64,000 bases of DNA from Prorocentrum cordatum (Eukaryota). The position numbers and the translations under genes were made by a program. The DNA lies in NCBI GenBank assembly GCA_963575745.1, contig CAUYUJ010000114.1, forward strand, positions 992,001 through 1,056,000, given 5' to 3'. Under the pieces are notes generated by a model. It saw nothing but the letters and a program-made list of their open reading frames with translations. It searched no databases and had not been told where the DNA came from. The number at the start of each line of letters is the position of its first letter. Within the stretch, counting starts at the first letter, position 1. This document shows positions 8,543 to 35,688 of the stretch, in pieces.

Positions 8543-8702
8543 GGAAAAACACAGACACACTTAATCGCCGATTCCCCAGAAAATATGGGAAAATATGGGA
8601 AAATATGGGAAGTGGGGGGAAGACAGAAACCCAGAAGATATGGTAAAATATGGGTAATATTTTGATTTGTGTGTATTAATTTGTGTGTCCTGGGGCCCCT
8701 TC
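8543..8702 (+). mobile_element. Dispersed ~150-bp MITE/SINE-like element (called family S here)
   Basis: ACACAGACAC...CCCCAGAAAATATGGGAA...TTTGTGTGTCC(C/T)(A/G)GGGCCCCTT also occurs at 14630 (split), 25480 and 35545, and in degenerate form near 42520. Confidence 0.8.
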
Positions 8703-14763: not shown

Positions 14764-15556
14764 CACAGGGGTACCATAGTTTTGACCATAAGGCGTCAGC
14801 CTTCCGACCACCCCCCATCCCCCAGTAGAATCTTAGCGACAGGTTTTCGGTCGGGCAGCGGTCCGAAGCCGATGGGCTCGTACCCCGTAAGAATATATTC
14901 CAGATTTCGTAATGAAAGGGAGGGGGTCTGGACCCTCCAAGACAAGCCATTTCAGACCTCCCCCGTGGGAGAACCCTCCAAAACATCGTCCCCAGACCCC
15001 TCAGGCCCTCCAAGATAGCCTGGAAGAGACCCCCCCCGAAATGAGACCCCCCTCCCTTTATTACGAAATCTGGAGTAATAATGTATCTTTAAAACGGTGT
15101 GATAATCGCTCCGTCCTACTAAAAATAGGCCGGGAAATCATTCCGACTTGGACCCACTCGCACTGGAATCACTCCGCACAGACAGAGTCAAGTTTCTCTT
15201 AGGATTTGAGTCGTCGCCCCAAAGAAAGCGCACCCGCGCGTTTCCGCATCGGTTTGAATGTTTCATTTTGCGTTCTTTATCCAAGTAGACATCCGCTACG
15301 GGCGCGCGATGACCCCTCCTGGGGCCTTCGGGCCCCAGGAGGGGTCATCACGCGCCTTCGGCGGATGCGTGGCGCTCGGCATCCTTATCCAACGCGGTTG
15401 CTCCTGCTTCACTGGTTGGTCATCCGATCTCAGAGAGCTCAAGGAAGTTGGGGGGCCCGCATCGGGGCATGTCTGTTTCCTCCTCCGTCGTCGGCGGCAC
15501 GCGGCACCAGCGAGGCAATTCTCCACCGATGGTCAAAAACTCTAGTACCCGACAAG
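14764..15556 (+). mobile_element. Solo diverged copy of the TIR-bounded unit of the 20218-24894 element
   Basis: Left end GGGGTACCATAGTTTTGACCAT, right end ATGGTCAAAAACTCTAGTACCC. The body is colinear with 20218-20731. TATTTG is duplicated at 14758-14763 and 15557-15562. Confidence 0.85.
14898..15075 (+). mobile_element. Tc1/mariner-type MITE, 178 bp, TA target duplication
   Basis: ~32-bp TIR (C/T)TCCAGATTTCGTAAT..AAAGGGAGGGGGTCT with TA on both flanks. An inverted copy lies at 34524-34702. Confidence 0.88.
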
Positions 15557-18212: not shown

Positions 18213-18810
<598 letters not shown>

Positions 18811-18899
18811 TGGGAGATCCCGGGCCCCGGGCCCCGGGCCGGAACCTCCCTTGTATATAGGGTGCGGCCCTCTCCCGGGGCGCCCTTCCGGCGGCCCCC

Positions 18900-19910
18900 G
18901 CGCGTTCCAGCCCGCCCAAGAGGGCTCCAGGAGCGCCGAGAGAACCCCAGGATCGCTTCAAGACCGCCAAAGATCGCTTCCAGAAGGGTCAAGAGGCGCT
19001 CAAACCGCCCCAAGAGGCCTTCAAGAGGCCCCCCACGAGCGCCCCGGGAGACCAAAATAGCCCCATTTCCTTCGTAAAACGTACATTTTTACGATATCAG
19101 CTCCCTTAGCTGTCGGAGCGGCCAGAAAACCCCACGAGGCGCCCAAGGACGCTCCAGGACGACTGAGGACAGCCCCAAGACGGCCCAGGAGGGCCTCCCG
19201 GGACGCTCCTCCGGCGGCCCCCGGGCTGCCCAGTCCGCCCAAGAAGGCTCCAAGAGCGCCGAGAGAAGCCCATAGGATCGCTTCAAGACCGCAAAGGATC
19301 GCTTCCAGAAGGGCCAAGAGGCCATCAAACCGCCCCAAGAGGCCTCCAAGAGGCCCCCCAAGAGCGCCCCGGGAGACCAAAATGGCCCCATTTCCTTCGT
19401 AAAACGTGCATTTTTACGATATCAGCTCCCTTGGCTGTCGGAGCGGTCCGAAAGCCCCACGAGGCGCCCTAGGATAGCCCGAAGACAGCCCTGGAAGGCC
19501 TCCCGGGACGCTCCTCGGGCGGCCCCCGGGCCTCCCAGTCCGCCAAAGAAGGCTCCAAGAGCGCCGAGAGAAGCCCAGGATCGCTTCAAGACCGCCAAAG
19601 ATCGCTTCCAGAAGGGACAAGAGGCCATCAAACCGCCCCAAGAGGCCTCCAAGAGGCCCCCCAAGAGCGCCCCGGGAAACCAAAATGGCCCCATTCCCTT
19701 CGTAAAACGTACATTTTTAGGATATATCATCCCTTGGCTGTCCGAGTTGTCAGACAGCCCCAGGAGGCGCCCAAGGACGCCCCAGGACGCCTGAGGACAG
19801 CGCTAAGAGGGCCTAGGAGGGCTTCCTGGGACGCTCCTCGGGCGGCCCCCGGGCCTCCCAGTCCGCCCAAGATGGCCCAAGAGACTTCCCGGTCGCCCCG
19901 AGAGGGCCCC
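18900..19910. repeat. Tandem repeat, ~300-330 bp unit, about 3 copies
   Basis: CCCCATT(T/C)CCTTCGTAAAACGT at ~19061, ~19387 and ~19689. Related degenerate sequence lies on the opposite strand near 43830-44100 and 48290-48440. Confidence 0.88.
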
Positions 19911-20782
19911 CGGAGCGCTCCGATACGGCCCAACATGGCCTCCATAGGTCTTTCTATGTTTTGAGGCCCAGAATGAGGCCCTCCAGATTTGGTCCGACGA
20001 TGTGGCGCGGCTCCAAGGGGGGGGGGCCTAATATTGCAGAACAATACAATATGTAGCATATGTAACAAGTATGCAATCGTTGGATACACTGGACACGTTG
20101 CATTAAAGCATCCGCGGACCTGCCTCTGGCAACACGTCATTTTCGGACGTAGATTTCCCGCGAATCGCCACGGAATCGGACCCGTTCTTGCGAACACCGT
20201 TTTCGGAGAAAACTAGACGGGGGTACTAAAAGTTTTGACCATAAGAACGTCATGCTCTCGACGCCCCCTGCCCCCCCGTAGAATCTTAGCGACATGTTTT
20301 GGGTCGGGCGGCGGTTCGACTCCGATGGGCTCTCACCCTGTAAGAATATAATAATATATATTTAAAACAGGGTGATAATTACTCCGTCCCATTTAAAATA
20401 GGGCCGGAAAACACTCCGACTTGAACCCATTCACAGTAAACCACTCCGCTTGGGTCACGTTTGATCGTCCGTGTCATCATCCCCATCGACCCTGTCCTTA
20501 TCATGCCAACGCGATGTTTCATTGTATTCCTTGTTGCGTTGATGCTGTGAGACCCTGGGCATCCTTCTCCAATGCGGTCGCTCTCGGTTCACTGGTTGGC
20601 CGTCCCAGAGGGCCCACAAAGGCTCGCGAATCCGCATCGAGGCACCTTTGCATCCTGATCGGTCCGCCGCGGCACGCGTGACCAGCGAGGCAATTCTCAT
20701 CTTATGGTCAAAAACTTTAGTACCCCCGAAGGGCAACATGGGTTCTCGCCGCCGCCAATCATCATCGTCATCTCCATCATCT

Positions 20783-20803
20783 TTGCAGCCGCTTTGGCTC
20801 AAG
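20783..20803 (+). other. Relict dinoflagellate spliced-leader-like sequence
   Basis: TTGCAGCCGCTTTGGCTCAAG versus DinoSL CCGTAGCCATTTTGGCTCAAG. The last 11 nt are identical and it ends 31 nt before the ATG at 20835. Confidence 0.75.
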
Positions 20804-20834
20804 ACCTTAGCAAGGATTTGCTCTGCTGTTGGTC

Positions 20835-21236
20835 ATGGGGTTGACAGGCGCAGTGCAAGCCCGGAGGGCTTTGGTGAAGTTGCTCCTCACGGTTGCTGCG
20901 GCGTACTCGGTTGTGGTTCGCCTCCACAGGGACTCCCAGGACAGCGAGGTGATCGCAGCCTTTCGAAAGGTGCTCCGCAAGGCGCACCCGGACAAGGGCG
21001 GGGCAGACGAGCACACGAAGCAGCTGAACGCCGCGAAGGAGCGTCGTGAAGAGCAAGATGGCACAGTCCGTGGGGGCGGCGCAGGCGAAGCTGATGAAGC
21101 GCGTCTGCAGGGAAGTGGTGCGCAAAAAGGGCGCGGCCACGGGCTTCTGAAGCGGGCCAAGCCCCGAGCCGCATTGGGGCGCGTTCACACAGGTGGAACA
21201 ACTCAAAATCAGCGTCGGCGTTTGCCGCGCGGGTGA
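20835..21236 (+). pseudogene. N-terminal J-domain ORF truncated by internal deletion
   Basis: ...DSEVIAAFRKVLRKAHPDKGGADEHTKQLNAAKE has helix II, HPD and helix III of a J-domain. It then joins out of frame to the DDE-like C-terminal segment. Confidence 0.8.
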
Positions 21237-21754
21237 GCACTCCATCTGCCCTGGCCGTTGGCCGTGCAGGTGAGAAAAGTCCGCGCGGGGGGTACTATAG
21301 TTTTGACCATAAGACGTCATGCTCTCGACGCCCCCTGCCCCCCCCGTAGAATCTTAGCGACATATTTTGGGTCGGGCGGCGGTTCGACTCCGATGGGTTC
21401 TCACCCTGTAAGAATATAATAATATATATTTAAAACAGGGTGATAATTACTCCGTCCCATTTAAAATAGGGCCGGAAAACACCCCGACTTGAACCCATTC
21501 ACAATAAACCACTCCGCTTGGGTCACGTTTGATCGTCCGTGTCATCATTCCCATCGACCCCTGTCCTTATCAATCCACGCGAGGTTTTTTGTATTTCCTT
21601 GTTGCGTTGATGCTGTGAGACCCTGGCACCTTCTCCATGCGTTCGCTCTCGGTTCACATGGCTGGGCCAGTCCCAGAGGGCCCACAAAGGGCCCTCGCGA
21701 ATCCGCATCAAGCACCTTTGCAGTGCATCCTGAAGTCGGTCCCCGCGCACGCGT

Positions 21755-21854
21755 NNNNNNNNNNNNNNNNNNNNNNNNNNNNNNNNNNNNNNNNNNNNNN
21801 NNNNNNNNNNNNNNNNNNNNNNNNNNNNNNNNNNNNNNNNNNNNNNNNNNNNNN
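21755..21854. other. Assembly gap (100 N)
   Basis: Run of N inside the array, so true copy number is unknown. Confidence 1.
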
Positions 21855-22552
21855 CCAAGCCCCCGGGCCGCATTGGCGCGTTCGCAGGTGGACAACTCAT
21901 CAGCGTCGGCTGTTTGCCGCGCGGGTGAGCACTCCATCTGCCCTGGCCGTTGGCCGTGCAGGTGAGAAAAGTCCGCACGGGGGGTACTATAGTTTTGACC
22001 ATAAGACGTCATGCTCTCGACGCCCCCTGCCCCCCCGTAGAATCTTAGCGACATATTTTGGGTCGGGCGGCGGTTCGACTCCGATGGGCTCTCACCCTGT
22101 AAGAATATAATAATAATATATATATATATATATAAAACAGGGTGATAATTACTCCGTCCCATTTACAATAGGGCCGGAAAACACTCCGACTTGAACCCAT
22201 TCACAGTAAACCACTCCGTTTAGGTCACGTTTGATCGTCCGTGTCATCATCCCCATCGACCCTGTCCTTATCATGCCAACGCGATGTTTCATTGTATTCC
22301 TTGTTGCATTGATGCTGTGAGACCCTGGGCATCCTTCTCCAATGCGGTCGCTCTCGGTTCACTGGTTGGCTGTCCCAGAGGGACCACAAAGGCTCGCGAA
22401 TCCGCATCAAGGCACCTTTGCATCCTGATCGGTCCTCCGCGGCACGCGTGACCAGCGAGGCAATTCTCATCTTATGGTCAAAAACTTTAGTACCCCCGAA
22501 GGGCAACATGGGTTCTCGCCGCCGCCAATCATCATCGTCATCTCCATCATCT

Positions 22553-22573
22553 TTGCAGCCGCTTTGGCTCAAG
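22553..22573 (+). other. Second relict spliced-leader-like copy
   Basis: Identical to 20783-20803; the downstream start codon is mutated to ACG. Confidence 0.75.
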
Positions 22574-22692
22574 ACCTTAGCAAGGATTTGCTCTGCTGTT
22601 GGTCACGGGGTTGACTGGCGTAGTGCAAGCCCGGAGGGCTTTGGTGAAGTTGCTCCTCACGGCTGCTGCGGCGTACTCGGTTGTGGTTCGCG

Positions 22693-22920
22693 AGCCCCGC
22701 AGAGCGGTGCTGGTTTTGGCTGCGTCGGAAGCTGCGGCTCATGGACTTGGACGACGCCGTGAAGAAGCGGCCCGTGCTGGGGAAGACGGTGTACAGGGCG
22801 CGGGTTCGGAGCGTCGTGAAGAGCAAGAAGGCACAGTCCGTGGGGGCGGCGCAGGCGAAGCTGACGAAGCGCGTCTGCAGGGAAATGGCGCGCAAGAAGG
22901 GCGCGGCCACGGGCTTCTGA
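22693..22920 (+). pseudogene. C-terminal fragment of an IS630/Tc1-like DDE transposase
   Basis: SPAERCWFWLRRKLR resembles the (SPDL)NPIE.xW..LK motif carrying the last catalytic residue. A basic helical tail follows and ends KKGAATGF*. Confidence 0.6.
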
Positions 22921-23270
22921 GCGGGCCAAGCCCCCGGGCCGCATTGGCGCGTTCACAGGTGGACAACTCATCAGCGTCGGCCGTTTGCCGCGCGGGTGAG
23001 CACTCCATCTGCCCTGGCCGTTGGCCGCGCAGGTGAGAAAAGTCCGCACGGGGGGTACTATAGTTTGACCATAAGACGTCATGCTCTCGACGCCCCCTGC
23101 CCCCCCGTAGAATCTTAGCGACATGTTTTGGGTCGGGCGGCGGTTCGACTCCGATGGGCTCTCACCCTGTAAGAATATAATAATATATATTTAAAACAGG
23201 GTGATAATTACTCCGTCCCATTTAAAATAGGGCCGGAAAACACTAGCAAGGATTTGCTCTGCTGTTGGTC

Positions 23271-23702
23271 ATGGGGTTGACTGGCGCAGTGCAAGCCCGG
23301 AGGGCTTTGGTGAAGTTGCTCCTCACGGTTGCCGCGGCGTACTCGGTTGTGGTTCGCCTCCACAGGGGCTCCCAGGACAGCGAGGTGATCGCAGCCTTTC
23401 GAAAGGTGCTCTGCAAGGCGCACCCGGACAAGGGCGGGGCAGACGAGCACACGAAGCAGCTGAACGCCGCGAAGGAGCGTCGTGAAGAGCAAGAAGGCAC
23501 AGTCCGTGGGGGCGGCGCAGGCGAAGCTGATGAAGCGCGTCTGCAGGGAAGTGGTGCGCAAGAAGGGCGCGGCCACGGGCTTCTGAGCGGGCCAAGCCCC
23601 CGGGCCGCATTGGCGCGTTCACAGGTGGACAACTCATCAGCGTCGGCCGTTTGCCGCGCGGGCGAGCACTCCATCTGCCCTGGCCGTTGGCCGCGCAGGT
23701 GA
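23271..23702 (+). pseudogene. J-domain ORF copy (deleted derivative)
   Basis: AFRKVLCKAHPDKGG; near-identical to the 20835 copy. Confidence 0.8.
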
Positions 23703-23937
23703 GAAAAGTCCGCACGGGGGGTACTATAGTTTTGACCATAAGACGTCATGCTGTCGACGCCCCCTGCCCCCCCGTAGAATCTTAGCGACATGTTTTGGGT
23801 CGGGCGGCGGTTCGACTCCGATGGGCTCTCACCCTGTAAGAATATAATAATATATATTTAAAACAGGGTGATAATTACTCCGTCCCATTTAAAATAGGGC
23901 CGGAAAACACTAGCAAGGATTTGCTCTGCTGTTGGTC

Positions 23938-24369
23938 ATGGGGTTGACTGGCGCAGTGCAAGCCCGGAGGGCTTTGGTGAAGTTGCTCCTCACGGTTGCT
24001 GCGGCGTACTCGGTTGTGGTTCGCCTCCACAGGGACTCCCAGGACAGCGAGGTGATCGCAGCCTTTCGAAAGGTGCTCCGCAAGGCGCACCCGGACAAGG
24101 GCGGGGCAGACGAGCACACGAAGCAGCTGAACGCCGCGAAGGAGCGTCGTGAAGAGCAAGAAGGCACAGTCCGTGGGGGCGGCGCAGGCGAAGCTGATGA
24201 AGCGCGTCTGCAGGGAAGTGGTGCGCAAGAAGGGCGCGGCCACGGGCTTCTGAGCGGGCCAAGCCCCCGGGCCGCATTGGCGCGTTCACAGGTGGACAAC
24301 TCATCAGCGTCGGCCGTTTGCCGCGCGGGCGAGCACTCCATCTGCCCTGGCCGTTGGCCGTGCAGGTGA
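23938..24369 (+). pseudogene. J-domain ORF copy (deleted derivative)
   Basis: AFRKVLRKAHPDKGG; exactly 667 bp after the previous copy. Confidence 0.8.
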
Positions 24370-24894
24370 GAAAAGTCCGCGCGGGGGGTACTATAGTTTT
24401 GACCATAAGACGTCATGCTCTCGACGCCCCCTGCCCCCCCGTAGAATCTTAGCGACATGTTTTGGGTCGGGCGGCGGTTCGACTCCGATGGGCTCTCACC
24501 CTGTAAGAATATAATAATATATATTTAAAACAGGGTGATAATTACTCCGTCCCATTTAAAATAGGGCCGGAAAACACTCCGACTTGAACCCATTCACAGT
24601 AAACCACTCCGCTTGGGTCACGTTTGATCGTCCGTGTCATCATCCCCATCGACCCTGTCCTTATCATGCCAACGCGATGTTTCATTGTATTCCTTGTTGC
24701 GTTGATGCTGTGAGACCCTGGGCATCCTTCTCCAATGCGGTCGCTCTCGGTTCACTGGTTGGCCGTCCCAGAGGGCCCACAAAGGCTCGCGAATCCGCAT
24801 CAAGGCACCTTTGCATCCTGATCGGTCCGCCGCGGCACGCGTGACCAGCGAGGCAATTCTCATCTTATGGTCAAAAACTTTAGTACCCCCGAAG

Positions 24895-24932
24895 TAGAAC
24901 CTAAGCGCGCGCGAAGCGCGCGCGTGGTTCTA
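24895..24932 (+). other. GC hairpin with GAA loop, resembling a Helitron-type 3' end
   Basis: TAGAACC-TAA-GCGCGCGC-GAA-GCGCGCGC-GT-GGTTCTA, followed by (TA)n. Confidence 0.55.
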
Positions 24933-25479
24933 TATATATATATGTATATATTTATACATTCAACACACACGCACACACGCTAATGCACACGCACCTACAC
25001 AAACACACACATCCACACACACACACATGTTTTGGCGTCGCGGCGTCGCGCACAGCGTCGAGGCTTAGAACGTTGAAGAGTGCAAAGCGGGAAACGCGCG
25101 CGTCCGGCCTGATCAGAAACACACACATCCACACACACACGCACACACACACACATAGATACACACATCTGCCTCCGACGCGCCGAAGAGCCCAGCTGGC
25201 GGTGGGGATGACAGCGACTAGAGCTTGCGAATACTCAAAAAAACAGCTTTGGCTGGTCGTTGGCTGTGGAGGGTTGCGCTCAAACAACTTCCGCAGCGAG
25301 GCTTCCGCACCCCCGCGGCGAGCACTCGTTCGTTCTCCGGGGCGCAACGGCAGCGGACGGTGTACGCTCAGCAGCGGGACACGCGGGCCTGCATTGCAGT
25401 TGCGCTGCTGCGAGCGCGCTAGGGCCGAAGCAGAAGCCAGCCGCGAGCTCGGGCTCAGGCCACGCAGGACTCAGGAGCG

Positions 25480-25632
25480 GAAAAAACACACAGACACAAT
25501 TAACCGTCAATCCCCAGAAAATATAGGAAAATGTTGGAAGTGGGGGGGAAGACGAGAATCCAAAAAATATAGAAAAATATGGGGAATCCTGGAATTTGTG
25601 TATTTATTTGTGTGTCCCAGGGCCCCTTGAAG
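25480..25632 (+). mobile_element. Family S element, intact copy
   Basis: Colinear with 8543-8702 and 35545-35688. Confidence 0.82.
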
Positions 25633-35302: not shown

Positions 35303-35544
35303 TAAAGAGGTAACAAGAAAGAGCTCAAAAAGCAAGAAAAGGGAGGACGGAGCCTCGAGCCCCTGGGGAGGACGGAGGAAGCAGGGGTATGGCTGAGCTC
35401 CGGCGCTGTGCGGGTGCAGAGGTGGGCCGCGCGTGGGCCCCGCGCTCCCCAGGGGGAGAGAGAGGCCCACCTCGGCGCACCTCGCCTCGAGCGGGGGCCC
35501 GTCCTCCTGTCATCCCGAGGTCCAGAGGTCAAAACTCAGGAGAG

Positions 35545-35688
35545 AAAGACACACACAGACACAATTCATCGTCGACTCCCAGGGAAATATGGGAAAATAT
35601 GGGAAGTGGGGGGGGAGACAAAAGCCCAGAAAATCTGGGAAAATACTGGGGATCCTGGTATCATTTGTGTGTCCCAGGGCCCCTTCAA
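35545..35688 (+). mobile_element. Family S element
   Basis: Colinear with the other copies. Confidence 0.82.

Follow-up and report, generated by a model that had tools for sequence, protein, structure and literature searches.

A direct-repeat array in Prorocentrum cordatum, probably the relic of an element that links a J-domain Rep gene to a Tc1-like transposase gene

In bacterial composite transposons of the IS-cargo-IS type (IS, insertion sequence), such as Tn10, a cargo lies between two direct copies of an element that has inverted ends. Teratorn, a fusion of virus and transposon, combines a replicon with a DDE transposase, and the geminivirus-related DNA of Nicotiana is an integrated head-to-tail array. 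Here we analyse a stretch of 64,000 nucleotides from the dinoflagellate Prorocentrum cordatum (GenBank assembly GCA_963575745.1, contig CAUYUJ010000114.1, positions 992,001 to 1,056,000 of the forward strand; hereafter the window), in which positions 20216–24894 hold a direct-repeat array, probably made up of tandem copies of a two-gene dinoflagellate element that have suffered internal deletions and are dead. One gene encodes a J-domain-bearing replication initiator (Rep) of the type known from viruses with circular single-stranded DNA that encode Rep (CRESS-DNA viruses) and the other a Tc1-like transposase, and we are confident of the identity of these parts. Replicon-transposon hybrids and integrated Rep arrays are already known; the union of Rep, transposase and J-domain appears to be new. 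The first-pass annotation of this DNA had proposed an undescribed mobile element. The array upholds that proposal, and in the literature searched, which did not extend to subscription journals, we found no published description of it, nor of any element pairing a CRESS-type Rep with a Tc1-like transposase, nor of a J-domain Rep; a term search likewise found no mention of a J-domain in the accessible text of two papers on Rep evolution (PMC6668415, PMC13595969).

The array has the form (A-B)5-A, in which A is a non-coding unit of ~515 bp with 29-nt inverted ends and B is a coding remnant. Comparison of A and B with the window by blastn gave six A copies, all direct (three complete, one entering an assembly gap and two truncated), and five B segments, each between two A copies, in the order A1 B1 A2(gap) B2 A3 B3 A4' B4 A5' B5 A6 and in a single orientation (Table 1). 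Complete A copies form both termini, at 20216 and 24894. The left arm of A1 is 93% complementary to the right arms of A1, A3 and A6, and with up to three mismatches allowed the inverted-end pattern matches four times in the window, against 0.00 expected from shuffled sequence. The earlier description of ~510-bp units with 29-bp inverted ends, complete at both ends of the array, all direct and with coding remnants between them, was thus confirmed. The gap, of 100 N, lies inside the array at 21755–21854, beside the indel-rich A2. A4 and A5 are cut identically, A position ~198 being followed directly by B position ~80, and are 98.5% identical over 197 nt; since they share the cut point, the duplication that gave A4-B4 and A5-B5 came later than the cut.

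In each B, deletion has fused the start of a Rep gene to the end of a transposase gene. Two junctions are present, one at 21038–21043, where both sides share GGAGCG as a 6-nt microhomology, and one at 22692/22693. The deleted span runs from Rep codon ~70 to transposase codon ~360 in the form found in B1, B4 and B5, and from Rep codon 29 to transposase codon ~322 in B3; because the two deletions overlap, neither form derives from the other, and because they differ, a longer parent must have existed, as had been proposed. B1, B4 and B5 retain an open reading frame (ORF) with HPDKGG, and its Pfam DnaJ match (E 1.7e-5) reaches 25.2 bits against a cut-off of 27.8, the shortfall being due to truncation of the ORF. 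The J-domain and Tc1-like tail had been read as a single cargo; both are indeed there, but deletion has joined the start of one gene to the end of another. Every catalytic domain has been lost and B3 has also lost its start codon, so that the window copies, to judge from their sequence, are relics encoding no working enzyme, which could be mobile only with help from intact copies. The gene models P0002, P0004, P0158 and P0067 read across deletion junctions and hence look like J-domain-transposase fusions; in P0158 (1696 aa) several array units are run into one.

The window J-domain is the N-terminus of a replication initiator of ~480 aa that comprises a J-domain, a HUH nuclease and a superfamily 3 (SF3) helicase. 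It shares 85–91% identity with the first 23–67 residues of 416-aa proteins and 62–70% with the beginning of a 510-aa one. In gene model P0002, 143 N-terminal residues are joined to the transposase start, and this N-terminus recurs at 90–92% identity in P0159–P0161 and at 53% in P0162, where it continues into a different protein. After the J-domain that protein carries LLTY, HxHLxLQF, a conserved Tyr, a long helix, a Walker A motif GxSxxGKT (GKSHTGKT) and LDD; these motifs are invariant in 60 aligned Rep sequences, as are H50, P51 and D52 of HPD (60/60). When the Rep profile was compared with Protein Data Bank sequences, DnaJ J-domain structures were matched at E 1.6e-5, the J-domain of large T antigen weakly at E 0.2 and Rep chains at E 0.2–0.43, only the J-domains being confident matches, and the Pfam Gemini_AL1 match to Rep was weak (E 0.0017, below cut-off). 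The AlphaFold model of the 510-aa Rep P0162, with a mean predicted local distance difference test score (pLDDT) of 89.7, found its best fold matches in redondovirus Rep (E 1.2e-7), adeno-associated virus Rep68, simian virus 40 large T (E 1.5e-4), papillomavirus E1 and the Rep nuclease domains of wheat dwarf virus and tomato yellow leaf curl virus (TM-scores of 0.60–0.65). The conserved motifs and the predicted fold together identify the J-domain protein as a rolling-circle Rep. Among 8000 candidates scored, the family comprises 349 clusters at E<=1e-3, mostly of 470–500 aa, one of them named from Polarella glacialis; a scan of viral contigs with Rep matched 15 pattern stretches, none of which was confirmed.

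By fold and motifs, the protein shares its HUH nuclease and SF3 helicase with the Rep of CRESS-DNA viruses (Redondoviridae, Geminiviridae). With polyomavirus large T antigen it shares an HPDKGG J-domain, a DNA-binding domain of nuclease fold and an SF3 helicase, in the same order. The origin-binding domain of large T is reported to be an inactivated nuclease (PMC13595969), whereas the family Rep described here keeps the HxH and Tyr motifs. Helitrons, too, are eukaryotic and have a HUH rolling-circle initiator fused to a helicase, but the helicase here is of the SF3 and not the Pif1-like type, and the inverted ends and DDE transposase found here are absent in Helitrons. If our assignment is true, the order J-domain, HUH, SF3 would provide a point of comparison for large T and could bear on its origin from Rep-like ancestors; the J-domains of the two may share descent.

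The DDE tail is the C-terminus of a separate Tc1-like DD34E transposase of ~395 aa. Searches with the 75-residue tail of B3 matched seven longer proteins at 57–92% identity, all with PF13358 and with or without PF01498, two of which are named as Tc1-like transposases of Prorocentrum cordatum; to the C-termini of Tc1-like transposases the tail is 85–92% identical. An exhaustive search returned 289 clusters at E<=1e-3, whose full-length members measure about 390 aa. Pfam gave no match to the 90-aa tail alone, so that the homology came from the protein searches. In full-length relatives PF13358 scores 45 bits (cut-off 28.6) and PF01498 27–30 bits, just under its cut-off of 31.5. All 15 relatives that were aligned share the catalytic D, D and E (D180, D290 and E325 of P0003), and 34 residues separate the second D from the E. 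The remnant in B3 starts exactly at the catalytic E, the only one of the three residues to survive in the window, and B1, B4 and B5 keep the final 37 residues only. The Tc3-type helix-turn-helix and DDE_3 domains and the 34-residue spacing are those of a Tc1/mariner DD34E transposase.

A Rep-profile scan of metagenome contigs yielded 79 loci, and these answered the question, raised at the outset, of what lies between the J-domain and the DDE tail in longer relatives. Two-gene loci were found, and one of them, L001, holds an intact Rep (482 aa) and an intact transposase (392 aa) with no other long non-overlapping ORF. A transposase is present in 28 of the 79 Rep loci, always on the Rep strand; where the contig extends 1.5 kb or more downstream of Rep it occurs in 12/26 loci, and where it extends 2 kb or more upstream, in 12/19. 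The identities of the two proteins co-vary (rho 0.49; as high a value arose in 42 of 2000 permutations). In eight assemblies (L064–L071) a ~7.35-kb unit of near-equal length, with terminal redundancy in two, combines a Rep at 41% identity and a transposase at 27–29% identity with ~3.5 kb that has no Pfam matches. Exact terminal redundancy of 41–141 nt was seen in 8/79 contigs, with units of ~3.7–7.4 kb. The tandem locus L021:1–4243 is a mixed array like that in the window: a partial A is followed by a short unit whose deletion has fused the Rep leader directly to the 3' untranslated part of the transposase, and behind this come a full A and then Rep and transposase, both intact. We think it probable that the intact unit, ~3.7–5.2 kb in relatives, consists in order of A, a Rep gene of ~480 aa and a transposase gene of ~395 aa. 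Unlike CRESS-DNA viruses, L001 and L064 yielded no capsid candidate by ORF listing and Pfam, six other L064 ORFs being unmatched and no structure-based capsid search having been made.

The A cassette also recurs in these loci. ORFs inside A have no Pfam match. With nhmmer, the window A matched 28 of the 79 Rep loci at E<=1 and 19 of them at E<=0.01; every match is on the Rep strand, either upstream of Rep or after the transposase. Inverted ends homologous to those of the window, with the core TAC-TA-A/T-AG-TTTT-GAC, enclose the A-like region in at least ten relatives (L001, L002, L005, L007, L014, L021, L037, L044, L048, L049, L052), and conserved within it are a C-rich block, an AT-rich word inside CACCC...GGGTG, and TTACTCCG-like repeats. 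In the window, each complete A has four direct copies of ACTCCG, against 0.48 per kb window-wide. Hairpins folded better than shuffled sequence in the window (z -3.9), in L001 (z -4.5) and in L041 (z -4.2), and the covariation of the named stem, although modest, exceeded that of 498/500 shuffles and of all slid controls; a simple hairpin finder missed hairpins in most loci. The loops hold TA[GAT]TAT-like words, and the canonical nonanucleotide of CRESS origins is TAGTATTAC. As in CRESS-DNA viruses, an origin-like hairpin with an AT-rich loop is accompanied by nearby direct repeats, and because hairpin and repeats stand beside a Rep gene, as they do in CRESS origins, A is by this analogy most likely a replication origin.

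The recurrence of the whole arrangement bears on the possibility that two copies of A, as a miniature inverted-repeat transposable element (MITE), merely flanked a chimeric pseudogene B, and that unequal crossing-over then built the array without any functional link between A and the genes. In favour of such passive amplification, (A-B)n-A is the expected product of unequal exchange between flanking direct repeats, A4-B4/A5-B5 is a plain in-place duplication, and the deletion junctions carry microhomology. Against it, A, Rep and transposase follow one another in this order and on one strand also where Rep identity is only 41–62%, A-like cassettes with homologous inverted ends lie upstream of Rep in 28/79 loci, and growth in place is equally a part of the explanation that we prefer. 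The conserved synteny across distant loci therefore argues against passive amplification, which we regard as unlikely.

The ends of the mobile unit can be read from two insertions in the window. Besides the array there is a solo, diverged A inside a copy of R, a dispersed repeat family of ~150 bp with four window copies (8548–8702, 25465–25632, 35536–35688 and the interrupted copy 14625–14763/15557–15585). The three uninterrupted paralogues of R represent empty sites for this insertion, with ...TATT-TA-TTTGTG... where the filled site reads ...TATT-TG[A]TA-TTTGTG..., a difference that would fit a TA duplication followed by one later change. TA stands at three of the four flanks (both flanks of the array and the right flank of the solo A), and the left flank of the solo A reads TG where the three paralogues read TA. 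In both insertions the left boundary lies at CAC/GAC followed by a G run and the right boundary at CCC(CC)G plus (AC)AAG, so that the G-rich ends are outermost. The outer termini in relatives are CAGT or CACT, which is the usual terminus of Tc1. A ~174-bp MITE with its own inverted ends of ~30 nt is nested in the solo A, at ~14900–15073, within the AT-rich hairpin loop.

In the window, in L001, L002, L005, L014, L021 and L049 and in others, the inverted ends enclose a non-coding cassette and the transposase gene lies outside. The case raised earlier, that relatives might be simple elements bounded at the inner ends, was not borne out, since their inverted ends also enclose the non-coding unit. 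The mobile unit appears to be A itself, or whatever lies between a left end and some right end further on, with the genes outside a single end pair; this explains both the whole A at each end of the array and the occurrence of A alone. Like Tc1/mariner elements, the family has inverted ends of ~25–29 bp (CAGT/CACT in relatives) and, in the window, TA at three of the four insertion flanks. Unlike them, its inverted ends enclose an origin-like cassette, its transposase is encoded outside its own end pair and beside Rep, and its integrated copies start and end with whole direct cassettes. Membership in Tc1/mariner therefore holds for the enzyme and fails for the element, because the gene does not lie between its own ends. 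As in composite transposons, the flanking modules are direct copies and the outermost ends define the mobile unit; the differences are that these modules are non-coding and origin-like and that the cargo encodes the transposase.

The same boundaries speak to an ordinary Tc1-like transposon of reversed polarity, which would run from TGGTCAAAAAC, preceded by TA, through Rep and transposase to GTTTTGACCA, followed by TA, with the interior of A as a spacer. Each repeat does have TA beside its inner end (TCT-TA-TGGTC and GACCA-TA-AGA), and the deletion derivatives retain both ends of the gene arc. The solo copy and the array boundaries, all at the G-rich ends, the CAGT/CACT outer ends of relatives, and the interior of A, conserved and always present, nevertheless make this arrangement quite improbable. 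A likeness to Tc3 ends had also suggested reversed polarity, which was dropped, as the shared core CTATAG is palindromic and the boundaries and CAGT/CACT termini point the other way.

Contigs from four sequencing runs supplied evidence on the array itself. Their k-mer depth on A and on both ends of B is far above that of the flank, contig depth not being a copy number, and many further deletion joints were seen in the four runs, for example 20813 to 21220 in three of them. An assembly artefact, in which reads of dispersed or extrachromosomal units were chained into a false array, order or copy number, could draw on the gap beside the indel-rich A2, on the highly repeated nature of the unit, and on evidence that is all at contig level, the joint between the flank and A1 being bridged by none of the listed contigs of the four runs, whose uncovered parts are uninformative. 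We consider an artefact very improbable, as tandem B-to-A joints occur in the independent runs X8 and X20, a mixed array of this kind is also seen in the independent metagenome contig L021, and both array ends coincide with element ends and TA.

The genes also carry a signature of their hosts. The motif TTTGGCTCAAG, which we take to be the 3' part of the dinoflagellate spliced leader, matches the window twice (0.03 expected), in each case 32 nt upstream of the Rep start, in B1 and B3. Within 200 nt upstream and with at most one mismatch, it was found at 13/68 Rep starts and 7/27 transposase starts, against a background of 0.011 per 200 nt. Dinoflagellates are said, by Slamovits and Keeling in 2008, to recycle processed cDNA into genes, and the spliced-leader-like motifs agree with hosts of that kind. 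Near-complete spliced-leader-like sequences lie upstream of Rep and transposase genes in L002, L013, L014, L016, L024, L050, L059 and others. From these encoded leaders, it seems that the leaders of both genes either went through a processed-cDNA stage or imitate the 5' ends of host mRNA. That the J-domain Rep and the transposase are domesticated cellular genes kept in tandem arrays, with the window holding decayed copies, would accord with these motifs, with the strong protein conservation and with the tandem gene arrays common in dinoflagellates, but it is hardly credible given a cassette with inverted ends that inserts on its own and leaves intact paralogous empty sites, abundant and heterogeneous deletion derivatives, and hundreds of diverged lineages on short circular-mapping contigs.

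In the mechanism that we favour, tentatively, Rep would nick the hairpin origin in one A and terminate and close at the next A, releasing circular or concatemeric copies amplified by rolling circle, while the J-domain might recruit host Hsp70, as that of large T antigen does in polyomaviruses. The transposase would bind the inverted ends and insert A alone, or A-(genes-A)n, at TA; because such an insertion would start at a left end and stop at a right end downstream of it, every inserted copy would have an origin on both sides of the genes. The mixed deletions and the duplicated A4-B4/A5-B5 would have arisen later and in place, by microhomology deletion and unequal exchange. Of the two readings first offered for the locus, a composite-transposon-like element and an integrated concatemer of a circular replicon, both fit, and they look like two faces of one thing. 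The concatemer gained support from the identity of Rep, the origin-like A and the circular-mapping relatives that also encode a transposase, and integrated CRESS arrays are likewise head-to-tail multimers in a chromosome. CRESS-DNA viruses differ in lacking what is found here, namely an N-terminal J-domain, a linked DDE transposase, inverted ends around the origin and spliced-leader-like leaders. The element may represent a new class, an episome-transposon hybrid in which a CRESS-type Rep copies out from origin to origin and a Tc1-like transposase pastes concatemers in, although we would put this no higher than a serious possibility; it has a fair chance of deserving a class of its own.

Several observations weigh against this reading. 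Circles, nicking and transposition are all predictions from sequence, and since a single circle would release identical units, a mixed array calls for subsequent change in place. About half of the loci with enough sequence have no transposase. The closest Rep proteins, P0159–P0161, lose the helicase part through frame changes, from which their lineage may be extinct. Terminal redundancy fits tandem repeats as well as circles, and L021, L035 and L079 are tandem. As to the origin, three of the six hairpins tested folded no better than shuffles, an RNAalifold consensus of 18 hairpin regions, including one 22-nt fragment, contained no pairs, and TAGTATTAC was found in one of 28 loops, that of L062. 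The TA evidence comes from two insertions, one of them mismatched, and the right boundary lies 3–5 nt outside the inverted repeat in both. Finally, the copy number and order of the array depend on an assembly with an internal gap and on the unbridged joint described above.

The family is large, with Rep conserved down to 41% identity, two dinoflagellate genera represented by name, and common occurrence in marine metagenomes, and it may account for a visible share of dinoflagellate repeats and for odd gene models such as P0002, P0004 and P0158. If true, the placement of the ends around the origin would leave each insertion bracketed by two origins and would give a cut-and-paste enzyme a replicative route, in a testable system from organisms whose genome dynamics are poorly understood.

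Table 1. Features of the array and of the solo cassette, in window coordinates.
Feature	Position	Strand	Details and evidence
TA, left array flank, possible target-site duplicate	20214–20215	.	Read directly; partner TA at 24895–24896
A1, complete origin-like cassette	20216–20731	+	Left inverted end 20218–20246; hairpin 20333–20375; right inverted end 20700–20728, then AAG; ACTCCG at 20319, 20381, 20413, 20443; inverted-end, blastn and motif evidence
B1, Rep start fused to transposase end	20732–21283	+	TTTGGCTCAAG spliced-leader-like motif in leader, 20793–20803; Rep ATG 20835, then ~70 codons including HPDKGG; deletion junction 21038–21043; last 37 transposase codons 21037–21147 in another frame; stop 21148–21150; then 3' untranslated part; ORF, motif and protein-match evidence
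A2, partial, many small indels, enters N gap	21284–21754	+	91.6% identical to A1
B2, only final ~120 nt (3' untranslated part), beyond gap	21855–21975	+	blastn
A3, complete	21976–22501	+	(TA)n expanded in hairpin loop; right inverted end 22470–22498
B3, Rep start fused to longer transposase end	22502–23046	+	TTTGGCTCAAG in leader 22563–22573; start codon mutated to ACG, 22605–22607; Rep codons 1–29; deletion junction 22692/22693; last 75 transposase codons 22693–22917, from catalytic E; stop 22918–22920
A4, truncated after ~198 nt	23047–23244	+	No right inverted end or spliced-leader-like motif
B4, same Rep-to-transposase deletion as B1	23245–23712	+	ATG 23271; transposase-frame stop 23584–23586
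A5, truncated at the same point as A4	23713–23911	+	
B5, same form as B4	23912–24379	+	ATG 23938; stop 24251–24253
A6, complete, closes array	24380–24894	+	Hairpin 24496–24538; TAATTAC 24539; right inverted end 24863–24891, then AAG; ACTCCG at 24482, 24544, 24576, 24606
TA, right array flank	24895–24896	.	Read directly
Solo A, diverged, inside repeat R	14764–15556	+	82% and 74% identical over two ends; TG left, TA right

A GAGAAAA word at almost the same offset on the left of the array prompted a comparison of its flanks with B, and continuation of the flanks into B-like sequence was not significant (149/500 and 75/500 shuffles scored as high). Further left are a long (AC)n-like microsatellite (18214–18770) and then a 303/325-bp tandem repeat (18872–19883); within the latter interval, positions 19620–19740 have a very high k-mer depth in the sequencing runs, indicating another abundant repeat. 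On the other side, a near-palindrome, AGAACC...GCGCGCGCG..GGTTCT, at 24897–24933 adjoins the right TA of the array.

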